Source of the DNA: Sedimentisphaerales bacterium
GTDB lineage: Bacteria; Planctomycetota; Phycisphaerae; Sedimentisphaerales; SM23-30
Length of the DNA stretch: 64,000 nt
Direction: 5' to 3'
Assembly (NCBI GenBank): GCA_963662515.1
Contig: OY759675.1
Span: 965,473-1,029,472 of the forward strand
This document shows positions 23,534 to 51,774 of the stretch, piece after piece. The position numbers and the translations under genes are program-made. How positions within the stretch are numbered: the stretch's first letter is position 1; every line of letters begins with the position of its first letter. The notes under the pieces are model-generated. The model searched no databases and was not told where the DNA came from. It saw only the letters and a program-made list of their open reading frames with translations.

Positions 23534-24403
23534 ATGGCTTATAACTGTGTTGTGCTGGTAAAGCAAGTTCCAGACACCAAGGCCGTTACAGGTAAGGCGA
23601 TGAACGATGATGGAACCGTCAATCGTGCGGCGCTGCCGGCGATTTTCAATCCGGAAGATCTCAACGCCCTGGAAATGGCATTGGAAGTTAAGGCAAGATA
23701 TGGGGGAACTGTTACGGTAGTAACAATGGGTCTTCCATCGGCTTGTGAAGTACTCAGGCAGTCACTCTATCGCGGGGCAGATAAGGCTGTGCTGGTAACC
23801 GACCGTCGGGCTGCTGCAAGTGACACCCTGGCAACCAGTTATATACTAAGCTGTGCGGTGCGGAAGATCGAAGATGTTGATCTGGTCTTCTGTGGTCGTC
23901 AGGCGATCGATGGCGACACTGCTCAGGTAGGCCCGCAGGCCGCTGAGAAACTGGGATATCCGCAGATAACTTATGTTGAAGAACTCGAACTGAAAGATAA
24001 AGTGGTATTTGCCAAACGAGGAGTGGGAGCAGGCTGGGAAAAGGTTAAATGTAATCTCCCGGCATTATTGACTGTTCTTGACACCGCCAATGACCCCCGT
24101 CCGGCAGTAGCTCATCAGTTGATGTGGTATAAAAAGGCTCGCAGTGCCTCAGAGGTTAAGGCCGCTGGTGGTACCGTGGAGCAGGTCGAAGAGCTGCGCA
24201 GTCGCGGCTTGCTGATCGAAGAATGGGATCTTGATCATTTGGAAGCTGACATGCAGTGGTGCGGCAAGAGCGGCAGTCCGACCAAGGTTAATCGGATCCA
24301 GAGCGTGGTACTGACCACTGGTGATTCGCGTATCATCGATTCTTCAGAGGAAAGCATCAAAGAACTTATCCATGAGTTGATCGAAGATCATACTATCGGT
24401 TAA
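23534..24403 (+). CDS. etfB: electron transfer flavoprotein, beta subunit
   Basis: N-terminal VVLVKQVPDT motif and EtfB-like remainder. GAGAGG RBS. Confidence 0.9.
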   Translation: MAYNCVVLVKQVPDTKAVTGKAMNDDGTVNRAALPAIFNPEDLNALEMALEVKARYGGTVTVVTMGLPSACEVLRQSLYRGADKAVLVTDRRAAASDTLATSYILSCAVRKIEDVDLVFCGRQAIDGDTAQVGPQAAEKLGYPQITYVEELELKDKVVFAKRGVGAGWEKVKCNLPALLTVLDTANDPRPAVAHQLMWYKKARSASEVKAAGGTVEQVEELRSRGLLIEEWDLDHLEADMQWCGKSGSPTKVNRIQSVVLTTGDSRIIDSSEESIKELIHELIEDHTIG

Positions 24404-24491
24404 GAGCAGGCTAGTACCAGTTGTGAGGCTGCGGCGTTAATAGTCGGCGGCCATAACCAGGATAAAAGGAAAATAAACCAAAGGTTTTAAT

Positions 24492-25520: not shown

Positions 25521-25568
25521 GCCGCTTAAAACAAGATTATAACTTTACATATTTATGGAATAAAATAA

Positions 25569-27826: not shown

Positions 27827-28927
27827 ATGGCCAAAGCCAAAAGCGATAATATAGATGTGATAAAGATGATCAGAGAATCAGCTAAGGATATTCACACCAA
27901 GATCAATTTGCTGTCGATACCGCATATGCGTATTCCGGTTCGGTCGCTGAATAATGTTGACTATGATGTTAAAAAGGGTTGTTTTGAACTTAAGGGCAAT
28001 ATGAAGGAGCGAAATTTTACTGTTAATACGGTAAAGACTTTTGCTCAGACAATGAAAATGATGGCTCTGAGTAAGGAATTGATCGAAACTGATGATATGG
28101 CAACCAAAAGAGAGGCGTACTACATCAGCAAAAACTGGGCTGATGCAGCGTTTCGTGAGCAGCCGGAATCTGATACGGTAATGGAAGATATAGAGGCTAT
28201 GTTCGGTGTTATCCGCGAGCGGCTGAAGTTTATCCCAGAGGAAAAGGGTGGTGAGGTTGCCGGTCGTCTGGAGGTAATAGACCGCGATCTGCAAGGACAT
28301 AAGCTCAAAATCGATTGTACCAAGTTTGGTTCTGGTTCCTATTCGATTCCTATTGATGTTGAGCATCTGGAATTTCGCAGTAATGCCAAGTTTATCCTGG
28401 CGATAGAGACAGCAGGTATGTTCCAGCGTTTAGTGAAATACGGTTATTGGGACACTGCAAATTGCATATTGGTGAGTATGGGAGGTGTTCCAACCCGTGC
28501 CTGCCGTCGTTTTGTCAGACGGTTAAGCGATGTATTGCGGATCCCTGTTTATGCCTTTGTTGATGGTGACCCCTATGGTTATTTTAATATCTACCGTACT
28601 TTGAAGGTAGGTTCGGGTAATGCCGCTCACCTAAATGAGTTTTTCTGTGTACCACAGGCAAGGTTTCTGGGCGTAACACCGCAGGATGTTAAGGATTATG
28701 ATCTGCCTACGCATAAGCTAAAAGAGGTGGATATTAAGCGAGCGAAGGATGCCTTGAAAAATGACCCCTTTGTGCATCATCATAAGTTATGGCAACGGGC
28801 TATTGATCAGATGCTGCGTGCCGGCACTCGTGTGGAGCAGCAGGCATTTGCCAAGCATGGTCTTGATTTTGTGGTTAAGCAGTACTTACCCGATAAGCTC
28901 AAGGCAGTAGATAAGTTTTTGCCTTAA
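27827..28927 (+). CDS. top6A: DNA topoisomerase VI subunit A (Spo11/Top6A family)
   Basis: CAP-domain KREAYY tyrosine motif. Toprim Glu in ILAIETAGMF and DxD in YAFVDGDPYGYFNIY. C-terminal VEQQAF...YLPDKL. 366 aa, the length of canonical Top6A. Confidence 0.85.
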   Translation: MAKAKSDNIDVIKMIRESAKDIHTKINLLSIPHMRIPVRSLNNVDYDVKKGCFELKGNMKERNFTVNTVKTFAQTMKMMALSKELIETDDMATKREAYYISKNWADAAFREQPESDTVMEDIEAMFGVIRERLKFIPEEKGGEVAGRLEVIDRDLQGHKLKIDCTKFGSGSYSIPIDVEHLEFRSNAKFILAIETAGMFQRLVKYGYWDTANCILVSMGGVPTRACRRFVRRLSDVLRIPVYAFVDGDPYGYFNIYRTLKVGSGNAAHLNEFFCVPQARFLGVTPQDVKDYDLPTHKLKEVDIKRAKDALKNDPFVHHHKLWQRAIDQMLRAGTRVEQQAFAKHGLDFVVKQYLPDKLKAVDKFLP

Positions 28928-34941: not shown

Positions 34942-35013
34942 CTGCTTGATAATGCAGTAGTTAGTTATTGTTTATATGTTTTGTCCATTTAAGCTTTTCA
35001 ATATGGTTTGACA

Positions 35014-37191
35014 ATGTCTGATATAAAAGTTATTAGACTTAATGCTGCCATTGAAACAGACGATTATGCCTGTGGTGCGGCTATGTATGGAATTATTAAC
35101 AAAAACGAACTGGTTTACTTCATAATTATACTAATATTAGGCTTTATAGCATCTATAACTAGTGGCCAGGGTAATTTATTAATGGCAGATACAGCTTCGG
35201 CAGATAATGTCAGTGCTGTGATTGCCTCTGGTAGCGAGACTGACTCTGGTAGTGGGGATTATCTGGACTTATCGCTGGAAGAGCTGGTTGAAATGCCAGT
35301 GGTAGTAACCGCTTCGCGAGCTGCGTATCAGATCAATAAGAGTACTATTCCGATATCAATTATTACCGCGGAAGATATTCATTATAGTGGCCTGACCAGT
35401 ATTTCAGATATTCTTCGTTTTGCGCCCGGCATGGATGTGCTTCCCAATCGTCGGGGCTTTACAGTGTCAGCAGTAAGAGGGTTTCATGATAATCTGTCAG
35501 AAAGAACTTTGGTTCTGATCGATGGCCGGCCTATGAATAATCCTTATTATGGCGGTTCAGATTATTTCCGATTTCCGATCAGTACCCAAGATATAGAGCG
35601 GATCGAGATCCTGCGTGGCCCGGGCGGGGCTGCCTGGGGTGCAAATGCCTTTACTGGTGTAGTGAATATAATCACCAGGAAACCGCAGAAAAGTCCTGAG
35701 GTTATATCAACGACAACTATAACGGAATTTAATGATATTTATAACAGTTTGCAGTATAGTTTTGGCAATGATACGATCAGAAATCGGTTTTCGCTCAATT
35801 ATAATGATATAGTCAGTTCGGCAGAGGCTGGTTATGGCGATGTTATATTCAGGAATGAGTCGCTAGGTTTGGTTCTTAATCGGAGTGATTATTATGATAA
35901 GGATTTTTTCCGTCAGAGTGCTTTTAATTATGGCAGTAATGTGACTCTGACTGAAGATAATATACTGGATTATGGTGTAGGATATTCTGATGTTGAGACT
36001 GGCAGTATAGAGTTTCTTGGTATTCCCTCTGTTAAGGATTTTTATGCAAGAACGCTTATTTCGCATGTAAAGCTGGAGCATAAGTTCGATGAAGAAACTT
36101 CTGCTTATATTCAATGTCGTTATGATCGTTATGAAATGTTCAATATGTCAGCAGCGAACTATAAATCTGACGAATTTGGACTGGATGGACAATATAGTTT
36201 TGTTCCCTTTGACGACCATGAATCGCAGTTTGGAGCTGATCTACACTTTTCAGATATGAAAATGAATTTTGTCGGAGATACTCAGACAAAGTTTGATAAT
36301 GATCATAACTATCAATATCAAGCAGGAGCGTTTGTTATCGATCGCTGGAAGTATGATGATTACTGGACATTTGAGGGCCAGTTCAGGGGCGATTATTTTT
36401 CCGAAAATAAAAACGAACTGGGTAGCAGGCTGACCGCCTTGCGTTTTCTGGATGAGGGTCAGAGTCGGGCATTGCGATTCAGTGCCGGTCGTTCATATCG
36501 CACACCCATGATCTTTTTGCGGGGAAGTAGTCAGGCAGCTATATATCTGGCTCCGAATCTGTACTATACTAATCTGTCAGAGGCTGATGACCTTAAAAAT
36601 GAGAAGATCGTTTTTTTTGAGGCTGGTTATCAACAGACGGTAATAGATAATACGGTATTTAACATAAACAGCTATTATCAGCAGATGGATGATATGATCG
36701 GTCTGCGATTATTGGATGATCCGCTGGGGCTGGGGCGGCGATTTACTCAGTTCTATAATCAAGGCAAGATCGGTGCCTACGGCGTCGAGTGTGACCTTGA
36801 ACGAAGATTTAAGTATGCCAGATTGTCTGTCTGGTTTGCTTATAATGATATTCAGAACAGGTATCCGGAACAGGATTTCAGGTCATATTCTCCTTCAAAG
36901 TATAAGACAGGTTTGTCCTGGCGTTATTTTATTAATGACTACTGGGTAGTGAACAGCAACTATCAATATGCCGGGCAGGCAATTTCTTATTCTGATATTC
37001 CTGATATCGAGCCTAATCATAGGCTTGATATTTCTATTAGCAGAAAATTTAACAATAACAAAGGCGAATTCATGATTGGAGTCAGTGATATCATAAATAG
37101 TGATAATAATGCCCATCTTGGCTTTGGTCAGTTTACTGCTAATACCACGCCTGGAAGAATGTTTTTTGCTCGTTTGCAATTGAAATTCTAA
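35014..37191 (+). CDS. TonB-dependent outer-membrane receptor
   Basis: TonB-box-like EMPVVVTASR. Plug motif IERIEILRGPGGAAWGANAFTGVVNIITR. Beta-barrel body with terminal aromatic residue (..LQLKF). Start is uncertain: 35008 TTG, 35014 ATG or 35083 ATG. Confidence 0.8.
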   Translation: MSDIKVIRLNAAIETDDYACGAAMYGIINKNELVYFIIILILGFIASITSGQGNLLMADTASADNVSAVIASGSETDSGSGDYLDLSLEELVEMPVVVTASRAAYQINKSTIPISIITAEDIHYSGLTSISDILRFAPGMDVLPNRRGFTVSAVRGFHDNLSERTLVLIDGRPMNNPYYGGSDYFRFPISTQDIERIEILRGPGGAAWGANAFTGVVNIITRKPQKSPEVISTTTITEFNDIYNSLQYSFGNDTIRNRFSLNYNDIVSSAEAGYGDVIFRNESLGLVLNRSDYYDKDFFRQSAFNYGSNVTLTEDNILDYGVGYSDVETGSIEFLGIPSVKDFYARTLISHVKLEHKFDEETSAYIQCRYDRYEMFNMSAANYKSDEFGLDGQYSFVPFDDHESQFGADLHFSDMKMNFVGDTQTKFDNDHNYQYQAGAFVIDRWKYDDYWTFEGQFRGDYFSENKNELGSRLTALRFLDEGQSRALRFSAGRSYRTPMIFLRGSSQAAIYLAPNLYYTNLSEADDLKNEKIVFFEAGYQQTVIDNTVFNINSYYQQMDDMIGLRLLDDPLGLGRRFTQFYNQGKIGAYGVECDLERRFKYARLSVWFAYNDIQNRYPEQDFRSYSPSKYKTGLSWRYFINDYWVVNSNYQYAGQAISYSDIPDIEPNHRLDISISRKFNNNKGEFMIGVSDIINSDNNAHLGFGQFTANTTPGRMFFARLQLKF

Positions 37192-37331
37192 GAATACATG
37201 CTGGCTGACATATTTTTATATCTGCTTGTAATGTTCTTATAAATAAGATCTTATATGATTTTTTGCTATGTCTTTTCGGTTATTCATCTTTAATTGTTAA
37301 AAAAATATCGATAAAAAAATATCTAATGGTA

Positions 37332-37360
37332 TTGACAATGTGTAATTGTTATTGTAATAT
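37332..37360 (+). promoter_or_regulatory. sigma70-like promoter upstream of adhE
   Basis: TTGACA (37332-37337), 17 nt spacer, TAATAT (37355-37360), about 100 nt upstream of the adhE ATG. Confidence 0.5.
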
Positions 37361-37459
37361 CGATATAGAAATAACGATTACTGGATTGTAGCTGTTATTT
37401 CAAATTGTCAGAAGTAGAAAGTAGATATTATTGAGCTAGTAAAACAGGAGATACAGACA

Positions 37460-40078
37460 ATGGCGACAGCAAAAGCAGTAGAGAAAAAAGACAAGCCCGA
37501 AGTGGCTGGTGAGGCAGAAAAGATAAAAGAACTGGTAGCCCGGGTCAGAGCGGCTCAGGAGAAATATGCTTCATATACGCAAAAGCAGGTGGATTATATT
37601 TTTCGTGAGGCAGCAATGGCGGCAAATGCCATGCGTATTCCTCTGGCCAAAGCAGCGGCAACTGAGACCGGCATGGGCATAGCTGAAGATAAGGTTATCA
37701 AGAATCATTTTGCCAGTGAGTTTATTTATAATAAGTTCAAAGATACACCTACCTGCGAGATAATAGAGCGGGATGATACTTATGGTATTCGTAAGGTCGC
37801 TGAACCTATAGGTGTGCTGGCAGGTGTTGTGCCTACGACTAATCCGACTTCAACGGCGATATTCAAGGCATTGATAGCATTGAAGACCCGTAATGGTATT
37901 ATCTTTTCACCGCATCCCCGGGCTAAGAACTGTACTATTGAGGCTGCCCGCATAGTGTTAGATGCGGCTGTTAAGGCAGGTGCTCCGGCGGATATTATAG
38001 GCTGGGTCGATGTGCCTACGGTTGAAGCCAGTCGGGTGCTGATGTCATCAGTTGATATGATATTGGCTACTGGCGGGCCAGGTATGGTGCAGGCGGCATA
38101 TTCTTCTGGCCGGCCGGCTATTGGTGTAGGTGCTGGCAATACCCCGGCGGTTATTGATGAAACTGCCAATATACCTATGGCAGTTAATTCAGTGCTTATC
38201 AGTAAGACATTTGATAATGGTATGATCTGTGCTTCAGAACAGTCTATTATCGCTGTGGCTGATGTTTATGCCAATGTTAAGGATGAGTTTCTCAAGAGAG
38301 GGGCTTATATTCTGAATGCTAAGGAGAAACAGGCTTTAGGAAAGGTGATAGTAAATGATGGTAAACTTAATGCAGCTATTGTTGGTCAGCCTGCTGTTAA
38401 AATTGCTGAGCTGGCGGGATTGAAAGTGCCTGCTGAGACCAAGGTGCTTATTGCTGAAGCTGAGGTAATAGGAGCCCAAGAGCCTTTTAGTTATGAGAAG
38501 CTCTCGCCGGTATTGGCTCTGTATAAGGCGAAGGATTATGCTGATGCCTTTGATAAAGCCGAACAGTTGGTTAAGTTCGGTGGCCGGGGGCATACTGCGG
38601 TGTTATATACAGACCAGGGTAAAGCTGACCGTATAGAGGAATTTGGCCAGAGGATCAATACTGGTCGTGTTCTTATCAATCAGCCCTCAAGTCATGGTGC
38701 TATTGGTGATATTTATAACTTCAGACTTGAACCATCTCTTACTCTGGGGTGCGGAAGCTGGGGAGGAAATGCTGTCAGTGAAAATGTCGGAGTAAGGCAC
38801 TTGCTCAATATTAAGACAATATCAGAAAGGCGTGAAAATATGCTCTGGTTCCGTGTACCTGAAAAAATATACTTTAAGAGAGGCTGTCTGCCAATCGCCC
38901 TGGGTGATCTGGCCGGCAAGCAGAGGGCGTTTGTTGTAACTGATAAACCGCTATTTGACCTGGGCATAGTTGATAAGGTAACCGCTATATTAGAAAATAT
39001 GGGTATAGAAACTGATGTATTCTATGATGTTCTGCCTGATCCGGACATTACCACAGTTAAGGCTGGTGTCAAGCGTATGGAACGATTCAGCCCTGATGTA
39101 ATTATTGCAGTTGGCGGCGGCAGCCCGATGGACGCAGCCAAGATCATGTGGCTTATGTACGAAAGCCCGGATGTGGAGTTTGATGACATGGCAATGCGTT
39201 TTATGGATATTCGCAAACGCGTATATAAGTTCCCTCAGTTGGGCCGCAAGGCTACTATGATCGCTATTCCGACAACATCTGGTACAGGCAGTGAAGTTAC
39301 TCCATTTGCGGTAGTTACTGATGATGCCACTGGCAGGAAGTATCCGATAGCCGATTATGAGCTTACGCCGGATATGGCCATTTGTGATGCCGACCTGGTT
39401 ATGACCATGCCAAAGGGCCTGACTGCCTTTTCTGGTATCGATGCTCTTACCCATGCCCTGGAGGCTATGGTGGCTGTTACTGCAACTGACTATACCAATG
39501 CTATGGCTCTGGAAGCGATACGCATATTGTTCAAGTATCTGCCGGCGGCTTATAATGAAGGTGCAAATAATATTCGTGCCCGCGAAAAAGTACACAATGC
39601 TGCAACGATGGCTGGTATGGCCTTTGCTAACGCATTCCTTGGTATATGTCATTCTATGGCGCATAAGCTGGGTGCAAAACACCATTTACCCCATGGGCTG
39701 GCCAATGCTCTGCTCATAAATGAGGTGATCCGCTTTAATGCTTCTGATAACCCCACCAAACAGGCAGCTTTTGCCCAGTATGAATACCCCGATGCCAAAG
39801 GACGCTATGCCCGCATAGCCCGTTATCTGGGGCTGGCAGGCAAGAATGACGATGAGTTAGTTGAAGCCCTTATTGCTGAGATTGGTAAGCTCAAAAAGGC
39901 TCTTGATATCCCGGCTTCGATCTATCTGGCTGGCGTAACCGAAAAGGCATTTGCCGACAGTCTTGATGAACTCAGTGAGATGGCTTTTGATGACCAGTGT
40001 ACCGGATGTAACCCGCGTTATCCGCTGATTGCTGAGATAAAGCAATTATATATCAATGCCTTTGCCGCTCCTCAATAA
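37460..40078 (+). CDS. adhE: bifunctional acetaldehyde-CoA / alcohol dehydrogenase
   Basis: 872 aa. N-terminal ALDH domain with catalytic Cys region (NGMICASEQS). C-terminal iron-ADH domain (GGGSPMDAAK, CHSMAHKLGAKHHLPHG). Confidence 0.95.
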   Translation: MATAKAVEKKDKPEVAGEAEKIKELVARVRAAQEKYASYTQKQVDYIFREAAMAANAMRIPLAKAAATETGMGIAEDKVIKNHFASEFIYNKFKDTPTCEIIERDDTYGIRKVAEPIGVLAGVVPTTNPTSTAIFKALIALKTRNGIIFSPHPRAKNCTIEAARIVLDAAVKAGAPADIIGWVDVPTVEASRVLMSSVDMILATGGPGMVQAAYSSGRPAIGVGAGNTPAVIDETANIPMAVNSVLISKTFDNGMICASEQSIIAVADVYANVKDEFLKRGAYILNAKEKQALGKVIVNDGKLNAAIVGQPAVKIAELAGLKVPAETKVLIAEAEVIGAQEPFSYEKLSPVLALYKAKDYADAFDKAEQLVKFGGRGHTAVLYTDQGKADRIEEFGQRINTGRVLINQPSSHGAIGDIYNFRLEPSLTLGCGSWGGNAVSENVGVRHLLNIKTISERRENMLWFRVPEKIYFKRGCLPIALGDLAGKQRAFVVTDKPLFDLGIVDKVTAILENMGIETDVFYDVLPDPDITTVKAGVKRMERFSPDVIIAVGGGSPMDAAKIMWLMYESPDVEFDDMAMRFMDIRKRVYKFPQLGRKATMIAIPTTSGTGSEVTPFAVVTDDATGRKYPIADYELTPDMAICDADLVMTMPKGLTAFSGIDALTHALEAMVAVTATDYTNAMALEAIRILFKYLPAAYNEGANNIRAREKVHNAATMAGMAFANAFLGICHSMAHKLGAKHHLPHGLANALLINEVIRFNASDNPTKQAAFAQYEYPDAKGRYARIARYLGLAGKNDDELVEALIAEIGKLKKALDIPASIYLAGVTEKAFADSLDELSEMAFDDQCTGCNPRYPLIAEIKQLYINAFAAPQ

Positions 40079-40146
40079 GATTTGATGTATTTGTCTTATT
40101 GCCAGTCAAGGCATATCTGATATTTGATCTCTATGAAATCAATTGA

Positions 40147-40195
40147 CGGCCCTGTATGTGTAGTATGTCATACAGGGCCGCTGTTGAATGTTTTA
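40147..40195 (+). terminator. rho-independent terminator after adhE
   Basis: 12-bp stem CGGCCCTGTATG / CATACAGGGCCG with a 10-nt loop, followed by a T-containing tail. Confidence 0.7.
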
Positions 40196-40235
40196 CCTGG
40201 TGTTAAATCAGGCCTGAATTGAAAAGTAAATAATA

Positions 40236-40505
40236 ATGAAGAAGATAGTGATATGTATGGGGAGTTCCTGTTTTTCCAGGGGGAATGAACAGAACCTGGA
40301 TAATCTTGAGCGTTTGATAGACCGGGGGATTATCTCTGGGGAAATAGACTTATCCGGCAGTCGCTGCGAAGGTAAGTGTCACACCGGTCCTATAATCGGT
40401 ATTGATGAAAAAATTTATTGTAATGTTATACCTGATGCTTTGCCGGAAATAATTCTGCATGAATTTGGTGTTATGATAGATAGCGAAGGAAATAGTATTA
40501 AATGA
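40236..40505 (+). CDS. small thioredoxin-like [2Fe-2S] ferredoxin (NuoE/HfsA-like)
   Basis: 89 aa. Cys pattern ICMGSSC...SRCEGKC. The stop overlaps the next gene's start (ATGA at 40502-40505). Confidence 0.7.
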   Translation: MKKIVICMGSSCFSRGNEQNLDNLERLIDRGIISGEIDLSGSRCEGKCHTGPIIGIDEKIYCNVIPDALPEIILHEFGVMIDSEGNSIK

Positions 40506-42220
40506 ACAGGAAATATCCGGTTTATACAGCCCAGACTCAATGTCAGGATTGCTATAAATGTGTGCGGGAATGTCATGTTAAGGCTATTCGGGTTGAAAAT
40601 CATCATGCCAGTGTTTTGACCGAATATTGTGTAAGTTGTGGTCATTGTGTTGATGTCTGCCCGGCAGGAGCTAAACATATTCGCGATGATGTCAGCAGAC
40701 TTAAGCTTATGCTCAAAGCACAGGATCAGATATTTGTTTCTCTGGCTCCCTCATGGGTATGCGAATTTCCCGGCATAAAACCAGAAGTGATAATAGCTGC
40801 GATAAAACAACTGGGTTTTGCCGGTGTAAGTGAGACTGCCCTGGGGGCGGAAGTTGTTTCTTATAAGATAAAAGATATGCTCAGAAGGCAGCGAGGCGGT
40901 TTGTATATCTCTTCTGCCTGTCCATCGGCTGTGGAATATATTCGTCGTTACCGTCCCGATCTGTGCAGTAATCTCACCAGTTTGTTTTCGCCGCTGTTGG
41001 CTCATGCCAGAATGCTAAAGGCTGAGTTTGGGGCAGGTGCAAGGGTTGTATTTTTTGGCCCTTGTGTCGCAAAAAAACTTGAGGCAGATAATAATGCGGA
41101 TCTACTCGATCTGGCTCTTACTTTTTCCGACTTGCGGCAATTGCTTACTGAAGCAAATATTGATATTGATGCATTGAAACCTGATAGTGACAACTGGCTT
41201 GTTGGACAGGCTGGTGATGGTCATTATTATCCGGTTGAAGGAGGAATGAATCGCACAATTACCGATGTGCCAGATGCTGAGTTGATATGTATTTCAGGTA
41301 TTGACCGCTTTAATGAGGAACTTGGCGGTTTGGTTCAGTTGTCTCAGGAGCGGGCTGTTTTCATTGAGCTTTTGGCTTGTTCTGGTGGTTGCGTGAACGG
41401 CCCGGGTATGACTAATCGAATAGAAGCCGGCTTGAGCAGAAAGCTCAGGATATTGAGTCAGCAGTCGGTCGGTAACCGATTCTCTGACTTTGGCAATATT
41501 GATATTAAGGCGGCTTTTGAGCGTTCTTATCTGCCGGTAAATGCGTTTAGTGATTATGAGGTTAAAAAGGCATTAGCTACTGTCGATAAACACAGCCATA
41601 GTGATGAATTGAATTGCGGCGGGTGTGGTTACGAAACCTGCCGGGAATTTGCTTTTGCTATGCTGAATGGCAATGCCGAGCCTGACATGTGCGTTTCGTT
41701 TATGAGAAACAAGGCTCAGAATAAAGCTAATGCCCTTTTACGCTGTATGCCTTCTGGGGTGGTAATAGTTAACAGCAAGCTGGAGATAATGGAATGCAAT
41801 AAGCCTTTTGCCGAGATGTTCGATGAGGATACCAGGTTGGCTTTTGACAGTATTGACACTCTCGAGGGAGCTAATGTTAATCATGTTGTGCCTTTTGCTG
41901 GTTTATTCAGATTGGCACTGCATACCGGTGAAGAAATATTTCGTCAGCGATATGTAGCAGGTGACCGAATATTTAATCTGACTATTTTTTCGATTCAGAC
42001 CGGGCAGATAGTGGGGGCGGTAATACAGGATGTGACAGAAATACAGTGGCAAAGACAGCAGATCGCTCAAAAGGCTCGCGAGGTACTGAGAAAGAATCTG
42101 GCTACTGTGCAGAATATTGCCTGTAGCCTGGGTGAGCATATGGCAGATACCGAGGTTCTGCTTAATTCAATTGCAAACAGCTATACTGATGGCAGTGAAG
42201 AGGCCGGTAAAAATGGATAA
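40502..42220 (+). CDS. hydS: sensory [FeFe]-hydrogenase homologue with C-terminal PAS domain (HydS / HfsB-like, group C)
   Basis: Two CxxCxxCxxxC ferredoxin motifs. H-cluster motifs are altered to SSACPS, FGPCVAKKLE and ELLACSGGCVNGPG. Cx2Cx4Cx16C motif (CGGCGYETC...C), then a PAS-like region. Confidence 0.85.
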   Translation: MNRKYPVYTAQTQCQDCYKCVRECHVKAIRVENHHASVLTEYCVSCGHCVDVCPAGAKHIRDDVSRLKLMLKAQDQIFVSLAPSWVCEFPGIKPEVIIAAIKQLGFAGVSETALGAEVVSYKIKDMLRRQRGGLYISSACPSAVEYIRRYRPDLCSNLTSLFSPLLAHARMLKAEFGAGARVVFFGPCVAKKLEADNNADLLDLALTFSDLRQLLTEANIDIDALKPDSDNWLVGQAGDGHYYPVEGGMNRTITDVPDAELICISGIDRFNEELGGLVQLSQERAVFIELLACSGGCVNGPGMTNRIEAGLSRKLRILSQQSVGNRFSDFGNIDIKAAFERSYLPVNAFSDYEVKKALATVDKHSHSDELNCGGCGYETCREFAFAMLNGNAEPDMCVSFMRNKAQNKANALLRCMPSGVVIVNSKLEIMECNKPFAEMFDEDTRLAFDSIDTLEGANVNHVVPFAGLFRLALHTGEEIFRQRYVAGDRIFNLTIFSIQTGQIVGAVIQDVTEIQWQRQQIAQKAREVLRKNLATVQNIACSLGEHMADTEVLLNSIANSYTDGSEEAGKNG

Positions 42221-43388
42221 TAGTCAGGTGCCCTTGTTGATCGAAGTTGACTGGCAGAGTACACTGAAAACAGGGCAGAGTATCTGCGGCGATTCAGTAG
42301 TAGCGGTAAAGTCAAAAGAGCAGCAGCGTTATGTGCTGGTTGTTTCTGATGGGCTTGGCAGTGGTGTTAAAGCCAGTATCCTCTCGCAGATGACGGCGAC
42401 TATGGCTGCAAAATTTGTGTCTTCCGATATGGAACTGCCAATTTCTCTGGGGGTTATGATGGATGCTTTGCCCGTCTGTCAGGTACGCAAGATCAGCTAT
42501 GCTACTTTCACTATAGTTGATTCAACGCTGGATGGAGAGACCAGGGTGATAGAAATGGGCAATCCCCCTTTTGTGCTTATTAGAAATGGTGTTGTTGTAC
42601 GCTATGATTCCAGACAGATCAGCTCTCCGGGGTGGTCAGGCAGAAAGATAACAGTTACTAACTTGAAGATAGAACCAGGCGACCGTCTGGTAGTTCTGTC
42701 TGATGGTATAACCCAGGCTGGCCTTGGTACTGTTGCCTGTAAACTGGGATGGCGCAGTAAGGGGTGTGAAGAATATCTCTTAAGTCGCCTGCGGCAAAGC
42801 CCTGATCTGTCAGCCCGGCAGATAGCCTCAGATGTGGTTAAAAAGGCAATAACCTTTGAACCAGGCTTGCTCCCTCATGATGATATGACTTGCGCGGTTA
42901 TGTATTATCGTAAGCCAAGAGAGCTTATGCTGGTGACCGGTCCTCCTTTTCGTGAAAGTAAGGATAAGGAATGGGCTGGCAGATTATATAGCTTTTCTGG
43001 CCGCAAAATAGTGTGCGGTGGCACTACGGCCAATATACTGGCTCGTGAATTAGGAGCTAAAATAAAAACTGGCCTTAAGCCTGCCGGCGGTTTGCCTGCA
43101 ATGTCTGAAATGGATGGTGTTAACCTGGTGACTGAGGGCATATTAACTCTTACCCGGGTGGTTACACTGCTCGAAAACAATGAGTCTGATAACTCTGCGG
43201 CTGCTGTTATAGTCGAAGAGTTGAAAAATCATGATATTATTTATATTTGTGTTGGTACAAGGGTTAATGAGGCTCATCAGGACCCGACTTTGCCGGCTGA
43301 ATTGGATATAAGGCGTAATATTATTAAGAGAATGAAACAAATACTGGAAGATAAGTATCTTAAGGAAGTGGAAGTAGATTATCTTTGA
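42213..43388 (+). CDS. PP2C/SpoIIE-family serine/threonine phosphatase (HfsC-like)
   Basis: VVSDGLGSGVKAS, LVVLSDGIT and HDDMTCAV metal-binding motifs. ATG 42213 overlaps the hydS stop by 8 nt. Extra ~150-aa C-terminal domain. Confidence 0.8.
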   Translation: MDNSQVPLLIEVDWQSTLKTGQSICGDSVVAVKSKEQQRYVLVVSDGLGSGVKASILSQMTATMAAKFVSSDMELPISLGVMMDALPVCQVRKISYATFTIVDSTLDGETRVIEMGNPPFVLIRNGVVVRYDSRQISSPGWSGRKITVTNLKIEPGDRLVVLSDGITQAGLGTVACKLGWRSKGCEEYLLSRLRQSPDLSARQIASDVVKKAITFEPGLLPHDDMTCAVMYYRKPRELMLVTGPPFRESKDKEWAGRLYSFSGRKIVCGGTTANILARELGAKIKTGLKPAGGLPAMSEMDGVNLVTEGILTLTRVVTLLENNESDNSAAAVIVEELKNHDIIYICVGTRVNEAHQDPTLPAELDIRRNIIKRMKQILEDKYLKEVEVDYL

Positions 43389-43400
43389 AAGGCTCAGATA

Positions 43401-43655
43401 ATGATAACGGTTGAAATATGTATGGGAACTACCTGTTTTGTTTTAGGTGGAGATAGTTTTTCTGATTTTGAGGAGAAACTACCTGTTGAAATGGTCGGTA
43501 AGGTTGAGATAGTTGCCGGGCGATGTCTTGGATTATGCCGGGGTGGTAAGTTTGAAGGTGCGCCTTATGTGAAAATTAATGGTGTGCCAGTTGGTAATTC
43601 AACACCTTCGCTGGTCCTGGATATATTGCATGAGATGATGAGAGGTGAGGAATAA
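43401..43655 (+). CDS. second small thioredoxin-like [2Fe-2S] ferredoxin
   Basis: 84 aa. ICMGTTC...GRCLGLC, paralogous to the protein at 40236-40505. 3-nt gap to the next gene. Confidence 0.7.
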   Translation: MITVEICMGTTCFVLGGDSFSDFEEKLPVEMVGKVEIVAGRCLGLCRGGKFEGAPYVKINGVPVGNSTPSLVLDILHEMMRGEE

Positions 43656-43658
43656 GCA

Positions 43659-45089
43659 ATGTCAGAGCGAATATTTCATAACGCCAAAAGGATATGTCGC
43701 GAGATACTTGTGCGTCTGGTGCGGGGTCATCTTTCTGGGAATCTGGCAGAAAAGATCGACCGCATACCTCTGGATATGAGACCATCACAAGACCCGGTTA
43801 CCCGCTGTTGCATTTATAAAGACAGGGCTGTGATCAAGTATCGCTGTATGGCATCTTTGGGTATGGCAGTTGAAACAGAAACCGATGAGCTAACCTCTCT
43901 GGCTGAGTATTATCAGCGGGCCAGTGCTGGTGGGTTAAGTTCTGGTGAATATATGACTGTATTGCAGGTTGCGTGCAGTTCCTGTGTCCGCTCTGGTTAT
44001 AGTGTGTCAAATGGCTGTCGCGGCTGTGTGGCTCGCCCTTGTGTTTCTGTGTGCCCCAAAAATGCAGTAGCAGTTATAAAGGGTCAGGCCCATATAGATC
44101 AGGATCTGTGTATAAAATGTGGAAAGTGTCTGGAGGCCTGCCCGTTCCATGCCATAGTCTGGATGCCGGTGCCTTGTGAAGAAAGTTGTCCGGTAAAGGC
44201 TGTATATCAGGATGAGCAGGGGAGGAGGGTTATTGATAAGGATAAATGTATTTATTGTGGTAAGTGTATTGTCGCTTGTCCCTTTGGTGCAATAATGGAG
44301 TGTTCCAGATTGCTCGATGTTATCAATGCAATAAAATCAGGCCGTCATGTAACGGCTTTGCCGGCTCCGGCCATTGAAGGACAGTTTCCTGCCAATTGGC
44401 AACAGATGGAGATGGCACTAAAAAAACTTGGATTTTCTGATGTCTTGCAGGTAGCCTGGGGCGCAGAAATGACAATTGCACATGAGGCCGCAGAGTTAGC
44501 AGAAAAACTTGACAGCGGCCAGACACTGATGACCACCTCTTGTTGTCCTGCTTTCGTGCAGTTCGCCAGGAAGCATTCTCCAGCAATTGAGCCCTTTGTT
44601 TCGCATACGCCCAGCCCGATGATATATGCCGGTAAGTTAGCAAAGCAAAAAGAGCCAGACACGCTGACTGTTTTTATCGGCCCATGTCTGGCCAAGCGGG
44701 TTGAAGCTCAGGCCAGTGACCAGATAGATTTTGTTGTATCTTTTGAAGAGCTGGGTGCCTGGCTGGTTGCCGCTGAGATATTCCCAGATGAGCTGGAGCC
44801 AGATTTTTATGGTGAAATGCCTTCAGGGCCTGCCAGAGGCTTTGCTCTGAGTGGGGGCGTAGCTGATGCTGTTTCACTTTGTTACAATGGGAATACCCCT
44901 TTGAAAAAGTCTTGTATTGATGGTATTGACCGTAAAGCGGCAGCTATATTGAAAAATCCCCACAAGGCTGTAAAAGATAATTTCCTGGAGGTTATGTCTT
45001 GTAAAGGCGGCTGTGTGGGTGGACCGACTGCTTTGCAGTCAGTCCAAAAGGCTGCAAGTCAGGTTAAAAAGGCTATTAGTGGGTTCTGA
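43659..45089 (+). CDS. [FeFe] hydrogenase, catalytic-type large subunit with N-terminal Fe-S domains (HfsD / group B-like)
   Basis: H-cluster motifs TTSCCPAF, IGPCLAKRVE and VMSCKGGCVGGP. Several CxxCxxCxxxCP ferredoxin motifs. Confidence 0.85.
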   Translation: MSERIFHNAKRICREILVRLVRGHLSGNLAEKIDRIPLDMRPSQDPVTRCCIYKDRAVIKYRCMASLGMAVETETDELTSLAEYYQRASAGGLSSGEYMTVLQVACSSCVRSGYSVSNGCRGCVARPCVSVCPKNAVAVIKGQAHIDQDLCIKCGKCLEACPFHAIVWMPVPCEESCPVKAVYQDEQGRRVIDKDKCIYCGKCIVACPFGAIMECSRLLDVINAIKSGRHVTALPAPAIEGQFPANWQQMEMALKKLGFSDVLQVAWGAEMTIAHEAAELAEKLDSGQTLMTTSCCPAFVQFARKHSPAIEPFVSHTPSPMIYAGKLAKQKEPDTLTVFIGPCLAKRVEAQASDQIDFVVSFEELGAWLVAAEIFPDELEPDFYGEMPSGPARGFALSGGVADAVSLCYNGNTPLKKSCIDGIDRKAAAILKNPHKAVKDNFLEVMSCKGGCVGGPTALQSVQKAASQVKKAISGF

Positions 45090-45139
45090 TACTATATTCT
45101 ATTTGCAGTTGCTGCTATGTCAAAGGTGCGATAAAACTC

Positions 45140-45168
45140 TTGACAAAAGGCAGGGCTTAATTGATAAT
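45140..45168 (+). promoter_or_regulatory. sigma70-like promoter upstream of rex
   Basis: TTGACA (45140-45145), 17 nt spacer, GATAAT (45163-45168). Confidence 0.5.
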
Positions 45169-45274
45169 ATTGTATCGATAATTGTAATGTCAATATGGCT
45201 CAATAATTTTGAAAGTTGTATATTTTTTTTACAACTTATTGTGAGCTATAGTTTTAACTGAAAATGAGGTTCTG

Positions 45275-45922
45275 ATGCCAGATAAGAAACGCCTGACCAA
45301 ACTGCCTACCATAAGGAGAATGCCGATGTATCTTCGTATGTTGGGGAAGGTTCGCAAGGACGGCATGGAGCATGTATCGTCTAATTTTCTGGCAGAAGCC
45401 CTGGATCTTGAGGCTATAGTAGTTCGCAAGGATCTGGCGGTCGCCGGGATACTTGGTAAGCCCAGAGTTGGTTTCGAGGTTCAGACTGCCATAGAGGCTA
45501 TAGAAAGATTTATGAATTTTAATAGCCCTACTGATGCAGTGTTGGTAGGTGCCGGTCATTTGGGTTGTGCCTTGTTGGGCTATACCGGCTTTGTAAATCT
45601 GGGCCTTAATATTGTAGCCGCATTTGATAGTGATTCGGGTAAGTCTGGAACTATCCACGACAAGCCGGTGTATCCTTTGACTGAGTTTACTCAGAGATGT
45701 AAGGATATGAAAATCCAGATCGGGATACTCTGTGTGCCGGGCCGGTTTGCTCAGGAAGTGACAGACATGATGGTTCAGGCCGGTATTAAGGGGATCTGGA
45801 ATTTTACACCGCGAAAATTAAATGTACCTCAGGGGGTGGTGGTGCAGCGTGAGGATCTGGCCGAGGGTCTGGCCGAATTGTCGGTTAAGCTAAGTCGTAT
45901 GGCCCAGTTAGCAGAAGAATAA
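45275..45922 (+). CDS. rex: redox-sensing transcriptional repressor Rex
   Basis: N-terminal winged helix with the RMPMYLRML motif. Rossmann GAGHLGCALLGY. 215 aa. Confidence 0.9.
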   Translation: MPDKKRLTKLPTIRRMPMYLRMLGKVRKDGMEHVSSNFLAEALDLEAIVVRKDLAVAGILGKPRVGFEVQTAIEAIERFMNFNSPTDAVLVGAGHLGCALLGYTGFVNLGLNIVAAFDSDSGKSGTIHDKPVYPLTEFTQRCKDMKIQIGILCVPGRFAQEVTDMMVQAGIKGIWNFTPRKLNVPQGVVVQREDLAEGLAELSVKLSRMAQLAEE

Positions 45923-45925
45923 CTC

Positions 45926-47140
45926 GTGGTTGTTGAAAAGCAAAAAACGCACGATCTTTCCCGTCCGGAGGAGATCCGTTATATTTTCTTTCTGGGATTA
46001 CTGGCGACAGTACCGCCTCTGGCCACTGATATGTATTTGGCTGCAATGCCGACTATTGCCAGTCAGTGGTCGGTTAGTGAGCAGCAGGTTAGTCAGTCGC
46101 TGGTTTTGTGGTTTCTCAGCTTTAGTATTTCCTTGTTGGCATGTGGTCCGATAGCAGATAAGGTTGGACGCAGACCGGTTCTGCTTTCAGGTCTGGTATT
46201 ATTTACGGTATCAACTTTTCTTTGTGCCTTTTCTCAGGGACTTGGCCAATTGATCTTTTTCAGGATATTGCAGGGTATTGGGGCATCAGCGCCATCGTCA
46301 ATGTCAATGGCAATTTGTCGAGACAGGTATCAGGGCAGTGTTCGTAAGAATATTCTTGCATATATATCTATTATCTTGTGTATGGCACCCATGGTTGCTC
46401 CGAGTATAGGTGCAGTTTTATTAAAATATTACAATTGGCGTTCGATCTTTATTGCTCAGGGAATTTTATCATTAATAAGCCTGCTGGTATCAATACCATA
46501 CAAGGAAACGCTGGTTGAGCCTTTGAAAACAGGCTGGGTGGGTGCTTTTGCCCGGTATGGTTCACTGGTCAGAAATAGTCGCTATATGTTGTGCAATAGT
46601 GTCATGGGGCTTATCCCCGGTCCATTTTATGGTTATCTGGCATTGTCACCTCTGGCGTATATAAAAATATTTGGTCAGAGTGAATTTACTTTTGCCATAA
46701 TGTTTGCCGTAAATGCCCTGGTGTCTATTGCCGGAGCTTATAGCTGTACCAGGTTCAATCGTTTTATAAATGACCGTCGCCTTATCACTTATTGTCTGTT
46801 TGGCTGTTTAGCTGGTGGTGTGGGTATGATACTTTGGGGTGGGAAGAGTTTTGTCCTTTTTGCAGTCTTTGTTGCTTTGATAACTTATTTTTCTGGTATG
46901 ACCAGACCGTTAAGTAATAATCTTATTCTGGAGCAGGTTAATACCGATATTGGCTCAGCTTCGTCCTTTATCGTGTTTTATCAGATGTTTATTGGCCAGT
47001 TTTGTATGGCGATTACTACCTATAGCTGGTCGGACCAGATATTTTCTTATGGCATACTGGCCAGTGCAGTACCGGTATTAGTATTAGTTGGCTGGCTGGT
47101 ATTTGTTGCCAGGCTTGATACCGCGACTGTCAGGAAATAG
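45926..47140 (+). CDS. MFS transporter (Bcr/CflA drug-resistance subfamily-like)
   Basis: 12 TM pattern. Motif A-like GPIADKVGRRPVL. GTG start 4 nt after the rex stop. Confidence 0.8.
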   Translation: MVVEKQKTHDLSRPEEIRYIFFLGLLATVPPLATDMYLAAMPTIASQWSVSEQQVSQSLVLWFLSFSISLLACGPIADKVGRRPVLLSGLVLFTVSTFLCAFSQGLGQLIFFRILQGIGASAPSSMSMAICRDRYQGSVRKNILAYISIILCMAPMVAPSIGAVLLKYYNWRSIFIAQGILSLISLLVSIPYKETLVEPLKTGWVGAFARYGSLVRNSRYMLCNSVMGLIPGPFYGYLALSPLAYIKIFGQSEFTFAIMFAVNALVSIAGAYSCTRFNRFINDRRLITYCLFGCLAGGVGMILWGGKSFVLFAVFVALITYFSGMTRPLSNNLILEQVNTDIGSASSFIVFYQMFIGQFCMAITTYSWSDQIFSYGILASAVPVLVLVGWLVFVARLDTATVRK

Positions 47141-47912: not shown

Positions 47913-49139
47913 ATGTCAACTCAAGGTATAGAATTTGAAAGTGATTATGCTGTAATATTTTCTGGCAAGATTAAGAGTTTATTCAGCCTTGACATGAAGT
48001 TTCTTCTGATTGTCCCAGCGTTATTTATAGTTCTGAGTTCTGGATATCTTGCTCCTTTTTTTATTTTTGCAGTAATTCCTGTTTTGTTATTGTGGTTGGC
48101 TAATGTGTTACTATTGTCTGTTTATTATCTGAAGCTTAAAAGAGTAGGCTTAAGCAATTTGTTTTTAGAAGCTGGCAAACCGTTGCTTTTGCTGATGCTT
48201 ATGATATTTACCATACCGTTAGGTAGCATAGGTTTTGCCAGTAGAAGTGACTATACCAAGAGTTACTTCAAAGAAAGTTCAGTAATGTCTGATGTTGCCA
48301 GTGCTCTGGCAAAGTACGCAGAGACTCATAATGGCCAATATCCAGATCCGGAGAGGTGGTGTCAGGAGCTGTGTTTTGATCAGAATCCGATTAGATTTGC
48401 TTCTGAAATGAATGTTGTGCTGAATCCTATGGCTCTGGAGCTTGGAGCTGATAAGCCTGTTGATATGGTTTTGGGTTTTGTCTGTTATAATGGACAATGG
48501 GGTCAGGTTGGTATTTATGATCGGAATGTTCATCTTGTTGGTAAATTGTTTCATTATTTTACTGGCAGATGGCGGGATAAAGTGGTCAGGTCAGATCAGG
48601 CTGAATATTTGAAATGGAATATGGAAAAGAAGCCAAGGGTCGATAGTACGATTAGTGATATTTGCGGAGCTATATTGTTCGGTAGCCTTGTTGTATTGGG
48701 CGGCTATGCAACAGTACGACACAGAAGTCTTTTGAAAAGATGTATTTTTCCCATTTTTGTAATAGGTTCATTATCAACAATATCTGGTGGTTTATTTTGT
48801 TCCTGGGCTACGATGTTATTTGAAGGTGGCAGCGCGCAAAGATTTATGGGACTCCATGGGTTTGGTATGTTTTTAGGTGTATTGTTTTCATGGTGCTTTG
48901 TGCTTTGGATGGCATATTACAGATTAAGGTGTAATTATGAACAATATGCTTACTGGGCGACCTTTTGGGGTGCGATTGCCGGAATTATTTGTTCATGTTA
49001 TCTGCATCTTTTTTTGATGGTGATGTACAATGAGTTGACTTTTTACCCATTGTTGGCAGGTGTGCCGTTCGGTGCCTGGTCAGGTATGCTTCTCGGCTGG
49101 TGGACAGGCAGGATGCTTGATTCCCGGCTAATTAAATAA
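47913..49139 (+). CDS. hypothetical polytopic membrane protein with a pseudopilin-like soluble insert
   Basis: Multiple hydrophobic helices. The central ALAKYAETHNGQYPDPERW resembles the GspG/DUF1559-type motif. Confidence 0.5.
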   Translation: MSTQGIEFESDYAVIFSGKIKSLFSLDMKFLLIVPALFIVLSSGYLAPFFIFAVIPVLLLWLANVLLLSVYYLKLKRVGLSNLFLEAGKPLLLLMLMIFTIPLGSIGFASRSDYTKSYFKESSVMSDVASALAKYAETHNGQYPDPERWCQELCFDQNPIRFASEMNVVLNPMALELGADKPVDMVLGFVCYNGQWGQVGIYDRNVHLVGKLFHYFTGRWRDKVVRSDQAEYLKWNMEKKPRVDSTISDICGAILFGSLVVLGGYATVRHRSLLKRCIFPIFVIGSLSTISGGLFCSWATMLFEGGSAQRFMGLHGFGMFLGVLFSWCFVLWMAYYRLRCNYEQYAYWATFWGAIAGIICSCYLHLFLMVMYNELTFYPLLAGVPFGAWSGMLLGWWTGRMLDSRLIK

Positions 49140-50304: not shown

Positions 50305-51774
50305 ATGAGCAGGATCAACACTAATGTGACTGCGCTAATAAGTACGCGCATTTTGAACAACAACAATGATCAGTTAAATCTTTCGCTGGAACGACTCAGT
50401 ACTGGTGTAAGGATCAATCGCGGAGCAGATGACCCTGCCGGGTTGATCGCTTCTGAGAATCTCAGAAAGCAGATAAAAGGTACTGAGACAGCATTGTCAA
50501 ATGCTGAGCGGGCGATAAATATTATCGGTACCGCTGAAGGTGCCCTCAGTGAGGTCAGTGATATGCTGGTCGAATTGCAGGGATTACTGCTTCAGTCGGC
50601 TAATACCGGTGGAATGAGTGAAGAAGAAATTGCCGCTAACCAGCTACAGGCTGACTCCATTCTTAACACTATCGATCGCATAGCCAATTCTACCGAATTT
50701 GAGGGTATTAAGCTCCTTAATGGTAACTATGACTATACTGTCAGTGGTGGAAATATTACCACTTTTACCAGTGCTATTAACGACCTTAAGGTTAATGGTG
50801 CCAAGCTCATTGATGGGGCGGCTATGAATGTCTCTGTGTCGGTGACTACTTCGGCTCAGACTGGTAAGGCATATCTCTCTGGAGCTGTTTCGGGCGTACT
50901 TACCATCAAGATAGGTTCTAATCGAGGCAGTACTGAGCTTACTTTTGCCAGTGGTACATCAGTAGCAAATGTTGCAACCAGTATTAATGCTGTCAAAGAG
51001 GTTACAGGTGTTTCTGCTACTGTAAGTGCTAATAATGTGTCAGTCAAGCTCAATAGTGTTGACTTTGGCAGTGAGGCTTATGTAAGCGTCGAGAGACTTA
51101 CTGTTCCAGCTAATGGCATGAGAATATTGGCTTCCGATGCAACCACCGGCCTTAAGACTGGCGGTGCTCTTACCGAAACCAGAGATGCTGGTGTGGATGC
51201 TGTTGCTACGATCAATGGTACGCAGGCCGTCGCCAGCGGTAAGAGAATATCGATCAAGACCGCGATGGTTGATCTGGAGATGGCACTGACTAATGATCGG
51301 GCGACAAGATTAGGTAGCAGCTCTTTCAGTATAACCGGCGGTGGAGGCGACTTTGCTATTGGCAGTGTGGTTGATGCTATCGGTTTAGAGGCGGTAGGTA
51401 TTTACAGTGTATCTTCTTCTTCGCTTGGAACCACAGATGATGGAAGATTGAGCACATTAAAGACCGGTGGGGCAAACAGCCTTAGTTCTAAAAACCTTTA
51501 TACCGCTCAACGAATTGTCAGCCAGTCGATTAAAGATATTTCCTCGCTTCGCGGAAGACTTGGTTCATTCCAGAAAAACACACTTGATAAGACCATAAAT
51601 TCGCTGACTGTAACCAAGGAAAACCTCTTTGCCGCTGAGTCTGCTATCAGAGATACAGACTTCGCCACTGAGACTTCAGCTCTGACCAGAAGTCAGATAT
51701 TGGTACAGTCTGCTACTAATGTTCTGTCGCAGGCTAATGTCTCTCCGCAGAATGTATTGCAACTGCTGGGGTAA
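50305..51774 (+). CDS. fliC: flagellin
   Basis: Conserved N-terminus MSRINTNVTAL...LERLSTGVRINRGADDPAGL and C-terminus ...ILVQSATNVLSQANVSPQNVLQLLG. Variable Ser/Thr/Gly-rich centre. Confidence 0.9.
   Translation: MSRINTNVTALISTRILNNNNDQLNLSLERLSTGVRINRGADDPAGLIASENLRKQIKGTETALSNAERAINIIGTAEGALSEVSDMLVELQGLLLQSANTGGMSEEEIAANQLQADSILNTIDRIANSTEFEGIKLLNGNYDYTVSGGNITTFTSAINDLKVNGAKLIDGAAMNVSVSVTTSAQTGKAYLSGAVSGVLTIKIGSNRGSTELTFASGTSVANVATSINAVKEVTGVSATVSANNVSVKLNSVDFGSEAYVSVERLTVPANGMRILASDATTGLKTGGALTETRDAGVDAVATINGTQAVASGKRISIKTAMVDLEMALTNDRATRLGSSSFSITGGGGDFAIGSVVDAIGLEAVGIYSVSSSSLGTTDDGRLSTLKTGGANSLSSKNLYTAQRIVSQSIKDISSLRGRLGSFQKNTLDKTINSLTVTKENLFAAESAIRDTDFATETSALTRSQILVQSATNVLSQANVSPQNVLQLLG

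Follow-up and report, generated by a model that had tools for sequence, protein, structure and literature searches.

In a 64-kb stretch of the chromosome of a Sedimentisphaerales bacterium (contig OY759675.1; the whole 64,000 nucleotides are referred to as the window), we analyzed an island of genes on the + strand that encodes the bifunctional dehydrogenase AdhE, a putative H2-sensing [FeFe]-hydrogenase (HydS), a PP2C-type phosphatase, a catalytic [FeFe]-hydrogenase, two small 2Fe-2S proteins and the NAD(H)-sensing repressor Rex. The island is probably a planctomycete version of the rex/adhE/hydS/PP2C/ferredoxin-hydrogenase cluster for fermentation control, operating by the mechanism proposed below. 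In fermenters, H2 sensing and switching between acetate/H2 and ethanol govern interspecies hydrogen transfer, and biofuel strain engineering makes use of the same switching by deleting hfsB. The genes of the island and the transporter gene that follows them are:

37460-40078, + strand: adhE, 872 aa, bifunctional acetaldehyde-CoA/alcohol dehydrogenase (NF010378, 1393.5 bits, cutoff 951; Pfam Aldedh and Fe-ADH)
40236-40505, + strand: fdxA, 89 aa, thioredoxin-like [2Fe-2S] protein (C-x4-C...C-x3-C; PF01257), which opens the sensor core
40502-42220, + strand: hydS, 572 aa, putative H2-sensing [FeFe]-hydrogenase of the hydS/hfsB type (PF02906, PF04060 and PAS)
42213-43388, + strand: PP2C gene, 391 aa, SpoIIE/RsbU-type phosphatase (PF07228)
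43401-43655, + strand: fdxB, 84 aa, second thioredoxin-like [2Fe-2S] protein (PF01257), partner of the catalytic hydrogenase
43659-45089, + strand: hydB, 476 aa, monomeric group B [FeFe]-hydrogenase of the hfsD/hydA2 type (TIGR04105, 514.6 bits, cutoff 450)
45275-45922, + strand: rex, 215 aa, NAD(H)-sensing repressor (NF003994, 255.8 bits, cutoff 130)
45926-47140, + strand: MFS transporter gene (PF07690), starting 3 nucleotides (nt) past the rex stop

Gene content and conservation of the cluster

An earlier note, made from the sequence alone, had described seven same-strand genes in a row, from adhE to rex, linked by overlaps of 4 and 8 nt and gaps of 12 and 3 nt in a non-Firmicute background. 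All of these open reading frames were found on the + strand at the coordinates listed, which are consistent with the overlaps and gaps, and each family assignment of the note was upheld by profile searches; Rex and the 476-aa hydrogenase matched NF003994 and the curated hidden Markov model TIGR04105 (monomeric group B), respectively, above their cutoffs. The best protein matches came from metagenome-assembled genomes (MAGs) of Sedimentisphaerales, an order within Planctomycetota, at 92-94% identity, in agreement with the non-Firmicute background. The GC content of the island (0.43-0.47) matched that of the neighbouring sequence. For the PP2C gene, homologue N-termini and the gene call in the related locus L001 favoured a start at ATG 42213 and disfavoured the alternative starts upstream, TTG 42117 and ATG 42189.

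We compared the island with the annotated cluster on plasmid pRUMAL01 of Ruminococcus albus 7, in which rex, adhE and the genes for a phosphotransferase, two 2Fe-2S proteins, HydS, a SpoIIE phosphatase and HydA2 lie on one strand. Expression of this putative eight-gene cluster falls 111-fold when H2 is kept low, and Greening et al. propose that the sensory hydrogenase and the phosphatase subunit drive the response (PMC6776011). In the window, rex, adhE and the genes for 2Fe-2S proteins, HydS, PP2C and ferredoxin hydrogenase likewise share one strand within ~10 kb. Every protein of the island had a homologue in the R. albus cluster: AdhE (62% identity), Rex (37%), HydA2 (36%, full length), HydS (32%), PP2C (29% over the full length, including its C-terminal domain) and both 2Fe-2S (Fdx) proteins. 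The hydS and PP2C genes overlap by 8 nt in both organisms, and both clusters have TATCGATA repeats upstream, which in R. albus are found 5' of rex. The two differ in that rex lies at the 5' side in R. albus, whereas in the window it lies at the 3' side, preceded by a promoter-like site of its own and followed by an MFS gene; in that one 2Fe-2S gene of the window is placed between PP2C and the hydrogenase; and in that the R. albus cluster resides on a Firmicute plasmid, whereas the island is chromosomal and belongs to Planctomycetota. These results indicate that the island is a reordered, kinase-less planctomycete counterpart of the known R. albus-type cluster and not a new system. Because the R. 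albus cluster already holds adhE and rex, the island is less novel than the earlier note implied.

The island also resembles the hfsABCD operons of Thermoanaerobacterium saccharolyticum/thermosaccharolyticum and Clostridium thermocellum (Clo1313_1796-1793), which encode a small Fe-S protein, the PAS-containing hydrogenase HfsB, the Ser phosphatase HfsC and the ferredoxin-linked HfsD; this likeness was drawn from the described gene order, and that with R. albus from sequence comparison. Genetic work has tied both the ethanol yield and the expression of adhE to hfsB (PMC5707799, PMC11837493). In T. saccharolyticum, deletion of hfsA or hfsB increases the adhE transcript and ethanol, but only with hfsC and hfsD intact (PMC5707799). 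In C. thermocellum, rex (Clo1313_1799) is located near hfs (PMC8457756, PMC5707799). Unlike hfsABCD, the window has an extra 2Fe-2S gene before the catalytic hydrogenase and carries adhE directly upstream, whereas adhE of T. saccharolyticum (tsac_0416, neighbour tsac_0415) is treated apart from hfs (PMC5707799). Similarly, HydS of Thermotoga maritima (group C, M2f) shares with the window protein an N-terminal 2x[4Fe-4S] region, an H-domain, a C-terminal [4Fe-4S] motif, a PAS domain and Ala at C299 (PMC10055695, PMC13104023); the position of M497 is Ser in T. maritima and Leu in the window. A further arrangement is rex-fdx-hydS-PP2C-hydCBA; in L004, L005 and ~20 other loci of our comparison, this sensor core stands before the genes of a trimeric A3 hydrogenase, whereas the core in the window is joined to a monomeric group B hydrogenase and adhE. 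The [NiFe] system HoxBC-HoxJ-HoxA of Ralstonia/Cupriavidus also employs a low-activity hydrogenase as H2 sensor and controls hydrogenase expression via protein phosphorylation (summarised in PMC5707799). Its proteins are unrelated to those of the window, and it pairs a histidine kinase with a response regulator whose output is known, whereas the window encodes a PP2C without known substrate or DNA-binding output.

To place the island among its relatives, we assembled 85 related loci from >10 phyla; in a scan of one genome per species, at least 598 species carried a PP2C of this family. The order fdxA-hydS-PP2C was kept in nearly all 85 loci, with fdxA upstream of hydS in 74 of them, and 3' of this core lay either fdxB with a group B hydrogenase gene or the genes for trimeric HydCBA. 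In most loci having a group B hydrogenase, fdxB sits 5' of it. Of the 85 loci, 20 contain adhE and 22 contain rex, with several gene orders and many phyla represented, and both occurred together in L001, L036, L044, L052, L053, L057 and L067; rex often heads a rex-fdx-hydS-PP2C operon. When all neighbours were clustered, no other family recurred in these loci except hydrogenase maturases, and Rex was the sole recurrently linked DNA-binding protein. Four Sedimentisphaerales relatives keep adhE-fdxA-hydS-PP2C-fdxB-hydB despite differing flanks. The rex-MFS pair lies 3' of the cluster in L001 alone of these four; rex is not beside the cluster in L002 and L003, and the contig of L006 stops right after hydB. 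A separate arrangement was observed in L078 (5339-12810, a Holophaga MAG), in which adhE is placed between fdxA and hydS and splits the otherwise invariant sensor core.

Candidate Rex operators and expression of the island

The following regulatory features were located around adhE and rex:

37294-37325, + strand: upstream candidate operator pair, TTGTTAAAAAAATATCGA and TCGATAAAAAAATATCTA, overlapping 18-bp dyads with a common TCGA core, just 5' of the adhE -35
37332-37360, + strand: adhE promoter-like site TTGACA-17-TAATAT, 10/12 positions matching, TTGACA kept in L001-L003
37346-37377, + strand: downstream candidate operator pair, TTGTTATTGTAATATCGA and TCGATATAGAAATAACGA, over the adhE -10 and the expected transcription start
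40140-40186, + strand: GC-rich hairpin 3' of adhE, with a 12-bp perfect core and a weak T-tract at 40189-40194
45140-45168, + strand: rex promoter-like site TTGACA-17-GATAAT, 11/12 positions matching
45161-45178, + strand: candidate rex operator TTGATAATATTGTATCGA, overlapping the rex -10 (17.6 bits by position weight matrix, PWM)

Both promoter-like sites, which had been proposed before adhE and rex in the earlier note, were recovered by a scan. Phylogenetic footprinting with L001-L003 identified the upstream dyad pair of adhE, which scored 21.4 and 22.8 bits with the PWM and occupy the same position in the three relatives. The downstream pair begins 52 bp past the upstream pair, scored 21.7 and 23.1 bits, and is also conserved in L001-L003; the rex operator is conserved in L001 as TTGATACTATTGTATCGA. 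The pattern TYGWTAW-N4-WTAWCRA, with the core TATCGATA, matched five times in the window against 0.51 expected, with four of the matches at the adhE promoter, and none of 100 shuffles reached five matches. Three of the four TATCGATA octamers in the 64 kb fall in the adhE and rex promoters. A PWM match at 28576, inside the coding region of topoisomerase VI subunit A, was set aside as chance.

The window dyads are built from TCGATA half-sites (TCGATA-N6-TATCGA), with a TTGTTAA half-site in two of them, and their geometry is that of the published 7-4-7 Rex box TTGTTAANNNNTTAACAA (PMC5367854, PMC8457756). Of 112 upstream regions from the related loci, 26 contained a dyad site, where 0.039 would be expected for each region. 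At least six phyla have such dyads 5' of rex, adhE or fdxA (among Planctomycetota, Lentisphaerota, Melioribacteraceae, Hydrogenedentes, Pontiella and Acidobacteriota); L040 and L052 carry the canonical TTGTGA...TCACAA in the dyad position. The sequence of the Rex recognition helix co-varies with the operator type, TCGATA-type or canonical. Because their geometry equals that of the published Rex box and the recognition helix differs by operator type, we infer that the TCGATA dyads are Rex operators.

The Rex protein of the window consists of a winged-helix domain (PF06971) and a Rossmann NAD(H) domain (PF02629). It aligns over its full length to the solved Rex structures 2vt2, 3keo and 3wg9, and its GxGxxG motif, GAGHLG, aligns with theirs. 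Two Rex paralogues per locus were observed in L004 (7928-9553) and L044 (2907-3566 and 16112-16723), ~50% and ~28% identical to the window Rex, which may point to a Rex subfamily dedicated to the cluster and distinct from a general one; Rex_1799 and Rex_2471 in C. thermocellum would be a comparable case. In two Terracidiphilus MAGs (L063 and L068), three TCGA cores lie exactly 14 bp apart 5' of rex/adhE (TCGATA-N6-TATCGATA-N6-TATCGA), and adjacent dimers on these arrays would share one core; the spacing in R. albus is 15 bp (L086, ~2610-2635). The MFS gene is probably co-transcribed with rex. The same pair is present in L001, and an operon of this kind is unusual.

A strong terminator had also been suggested after adhE. 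The hairpin itself is strong, with a fold of -44.4 kcal/mol (z = -3.9) for the adhE-fdxA intergenic region, but its T-tract is poor, and it was not called by a consensus terminator scan. Analogous hairpins were seen by eye in L001 and L003. The structure is probably a partial terminator or attenuator. Neither a Rex-type operator nor a clear promoter was found in the adhE-fdxA interval, whether of the window or of L001-L003. As the five middle genes have no operator or recognisable promoter of their own there, read-through from adhE would be the simplest route for their expression, and their regulation would have to come through this read-through or through something unseen. The evidence for the proposal of the earlier note that the genes form one control island is uneven along the cluster: conserved candidate operators of the Rex type are found at the promoters of adhE and rex alone, and none precedes the five middle genes.

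Sensor hydrogenase, phosphatase and its C-terminal domain

The 572-aa protein, which has >5,600 homologues, consists of a 2x[4Fe-4S] region, an H-domain (PF02906, E = 5.6e-40), a C-terminal FeS motif and a PAS domain. Alignment to the HydA structures 7p5h and 8a6t showed that all four H-cluster cysteines are retained (SSAC-P, GP-C, LLA-C and GG-C, in motifs reading SSACP, GPC and LLACSGGC). In the same alignment, the proton-relay Cys (C299) is replaced by Ala (SSACP vs TSCCP), M353 by Gly and M497 by Leu. Such substitutions are typical of low-activity sensory enzymes, in which Ala at C299 and Gly at M353 have class frequencies of ~43% and ~51%, respectively (PMC10055695). The four-Cys FeS motif near the C-terminus matched PF04060 at 42 bits and is followed by the PAS domain, for which PAS_8 exceeded its cutoff on the C-terminal fragment only (22.2 bits, cutoff 21.8) and several weaker PAS models matched as well. 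Together, these features bear out the earlier description of a HydS/Hfs-type protein with a terminal PAS domain and support its assignment as a putative group C sensory [FeFe]-hydrogenase. HydDB defines a subgroup "C3, phosphatase-linked (putative)" (PMC5037454), and the 572-aa protein, judged by gene context and motifs, would fit this subgroup, as the phosphatase gene shares its first 8 nt with the end of hydS. In the translation of the 476-aa hydrogenase, the motifs TSCCP, GPC and MSCKGGC are intact; judged by its sequence, this protein is the catalytic enzyme, of the HfsD/HydA2 type.

The N-terminal domain of the PP2C protein matched SpoIIE, RsbU and RsbX in PDB by both sequence and fold (5mqh, 3pu9, 3ke6, 3w40). 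Its metal-binding aspartates, D27, D46, D164, D223 and D224, are invariant among homologues, and the phosphatase looks catalytically competent. A fold search with the whole protein was dominated by the PP2C domain, and the remaining domain was also searched by itself:

42906-43388, + strand: C-terminal domain of the PP2C protein (residues ~232-391), family-private and Rossmann-like

This domain was predicted to adopt a Rossmann-like three-layer fold (model confidence, pLDDT, 85), and the best PDB match of the model was weak (E = 4e-3; template-modelling score, TM, 0.43; Rossmann/MGS-like). No Pfam family matched it, and even a threshold of E <= 10 yielded only noise. In a profile search of 1.84 billion representatives, the domain was found in 1,082 representative clusters, nearly always as the C-terminus of ~390-aa proteins. 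It is better conserved than the N-terminal domain, with ~50% identity across phyla, and has the conserved motifs GPP, CGGTT, EGILTLT and NEAHQDP..LP..RRNI, of which CGGTT, EGILTLT and NEAHQDP are invariant. The domain was specific to HydS-linked phosphatases and was not seen fused to other proteins. It is an obvious candidate for the missing link downstream of HydS.

The earlier note had seen no kinase or STAS protein, and indeed neither was present in the 64-kb window, in which no kinase Pfam family was found. The window likewise lacks a linked STAS substrate with an anti-sigma kinase, and across 86 loci neither family was a recurrent neighbour. A tblastn search for a homologue of the R. albus kinase returned 0 matches at E <= 1e-3 in the window and the 85 loci. 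The classical partner-switching module, composed of an RsbU/SpoIIE phosphatase, a STAS protein and an RsbW/SpoIIAB kinase, was rejected because its STAS and kinase parts are absent. The private C-terminal domain, the lack of a linked kinase or STAS protein across at least 85 loci, and Rex as the sole recurrent DNA-binding partner point away from a switch of this classical kind. One alternative, which we rate as unlikely, is that HydS-PP2C acts directly on the TCGATA-type Rex, or that the C-terminal domain binds a nucleotide signal, so that one set of operators would receive both the H2 and the NADH signal without a classical partner switch.

Proposed mechanism, alternatives and neighbouring genes

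We propose that the island operates as follows. At low NADH/NAD+, Rex would occupy the TCGATA dyads. It would repress adhE from four overlapping sites, which lie on either side of the -35 and extend across the -10 and the transcription start, and would repress the rex-MFS unit, to which its own gene belongs, from the single site on the -10; when NADH rises, Rex would be released. The genes fdxA-hydS-PP2C-fdxB-hydB would owe most of their transcription to polymerase reading through the weak-tailed hairpin 3' of adhE, and therefore ethanol formation and ferredoxin-dependent H2 evolution would be switched on together. HydS, together with FdxA, would report H2 or the ferredoxin redox state, via the H-cluster, the C-terminal FeS cluster and the PAS domain, to the translationally coupled PP2C. 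PP2C would then alter the phosphorylation of a target encoded elsewhere and so tune the expression or activity of adhE and the hydrogenase, as the genetics of hfsB and hfsC in T. saccharolyticum imply. The putative Rex repression and read-through draw on the sequence evidence gathered here; for the steps from HydS to PP2C and from PP2C to its target, which are hypothetical in every organism, the basis is homology with the systems studied in R. albus and Thermoanaerobacterium.

Several observations weigh against this mechanism. The 249-aa phosphotransferase (kinase) of R. albus is absent from the window. With the whole 572-aa protein as query, PAS_8 scored 20.3 bits, just under its cutoff of 21.8. 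H2 sensing is unproven for HydS of any source, and the C-terminal cluster of a group D enzyme was shown to be unresponsive to H2 (PMC13104023). The assignment of the dyads to Rex draws on where they lie, on their geometry and on co-variation, and another regulator could bind them. Finally, the hairpin after adhE could terminate efficiently, and fdxA could have a promoter that escaped recognition.

The five middle genes might instead encode one multi-subunit ferredoxin hydrogenase, with the 572-aa protein as a structural or electron-transfer subunit, PP2C as a post-translational regulator of the enzyme, and adhE and rex as mere neighbours. The tight translational coupling of the five genes and the first description of the hfs operon as "the main hydrogenase" (PMC11837493) would suit such a complex, as would the finding that transcript levels do not wholly account for the altered AdhE activity of hfs mutants (PMC5707799). 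A target inside the operon would also be economical, given that the 85 loci have no linked transcription factor besides Rex and no linked kinase or STAS protein. However, the 572-aa protein bears a PAS domain, lacks the proton-relay Cys and is substituted at M353 and M497 as in low-activity sensory enzymes (PMC10055695), and deletion of hfsB raises hydrogenase activity (PMC5707799). Moreover, the catalytic hydrogenase joined to the fdx-hydS-PP2C core may be either of two unrelated kinds, group B or trimeric A3, which fits a portable regulator better than a fixed subunit. We therefore consider an enzyme complex of this type improbable. It is more improbable still that adhE, the hfs-type operon and rex are regulated independently, brought together by chance or by shared horizontal transfer, with the dyads belonging to an unrelated regulator: the strong hairpin between adhE and fdxA, the promoter-like site of rex, the separation of rex from the cluster in L002 and L003 and the lack of an operator before fdxA agree with this, but chance does not suffice to explain the recurrence of adhE and/or rex by the module in many phyla and several orders, the same dyads are found at adhE, rex and fdxA-hydS promoters across phyla with the canonical Rex box as a substitute in some lineages, and the R. 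albus cluster is co-regulated experimentally (PMC6776011).

Read as a planctomycete fermentation-control cluster, the locus extends the rex/adhE/hydS/PP2C/hydrogenase arrangement to Planctomycetota and does not alone alter the picture of HydS signalling. What it chiefly offers is a further point of comparison in the search for the output of HydS. The handles gained are a defined set of candidate operators for Rex-adhE, a sensor core that usually travels kinase-free, and a conserved C-terminal domain of the phosphatase.

Elsewhere in the window, three consecutive genes at 23534-27383 (+ strand), ~10 kb 5' of the island, encode EtfB, EtfA and an acyl-CoA dehydrogenase of 604 aa; they may form an electron-bifurcating module of the Bcd/Etf type, another ferredoxin/NADH node. 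Topoisomerase VI subunit A (Spo11-like) is encoded at 27827-28927 in this bacterial genome and in the same relative place in L001. A TonB-dependent receptor gene at 35008-37191 directly precedes adhE. It is not there in L001, where a gene for a BioA-like aminotransferase abuts adhE, which may reflect an insertion in the window lineage or a loss in L001; the adhE promoter/operator block is conserved on the downstream side of the receptor gene. Beyond the MFS gene, a 408-aa multi-pass membrane protein without a Pfam match is encoded at 47913-49139, and a flagellin gene at 50305-51774 is syntenic with L001.

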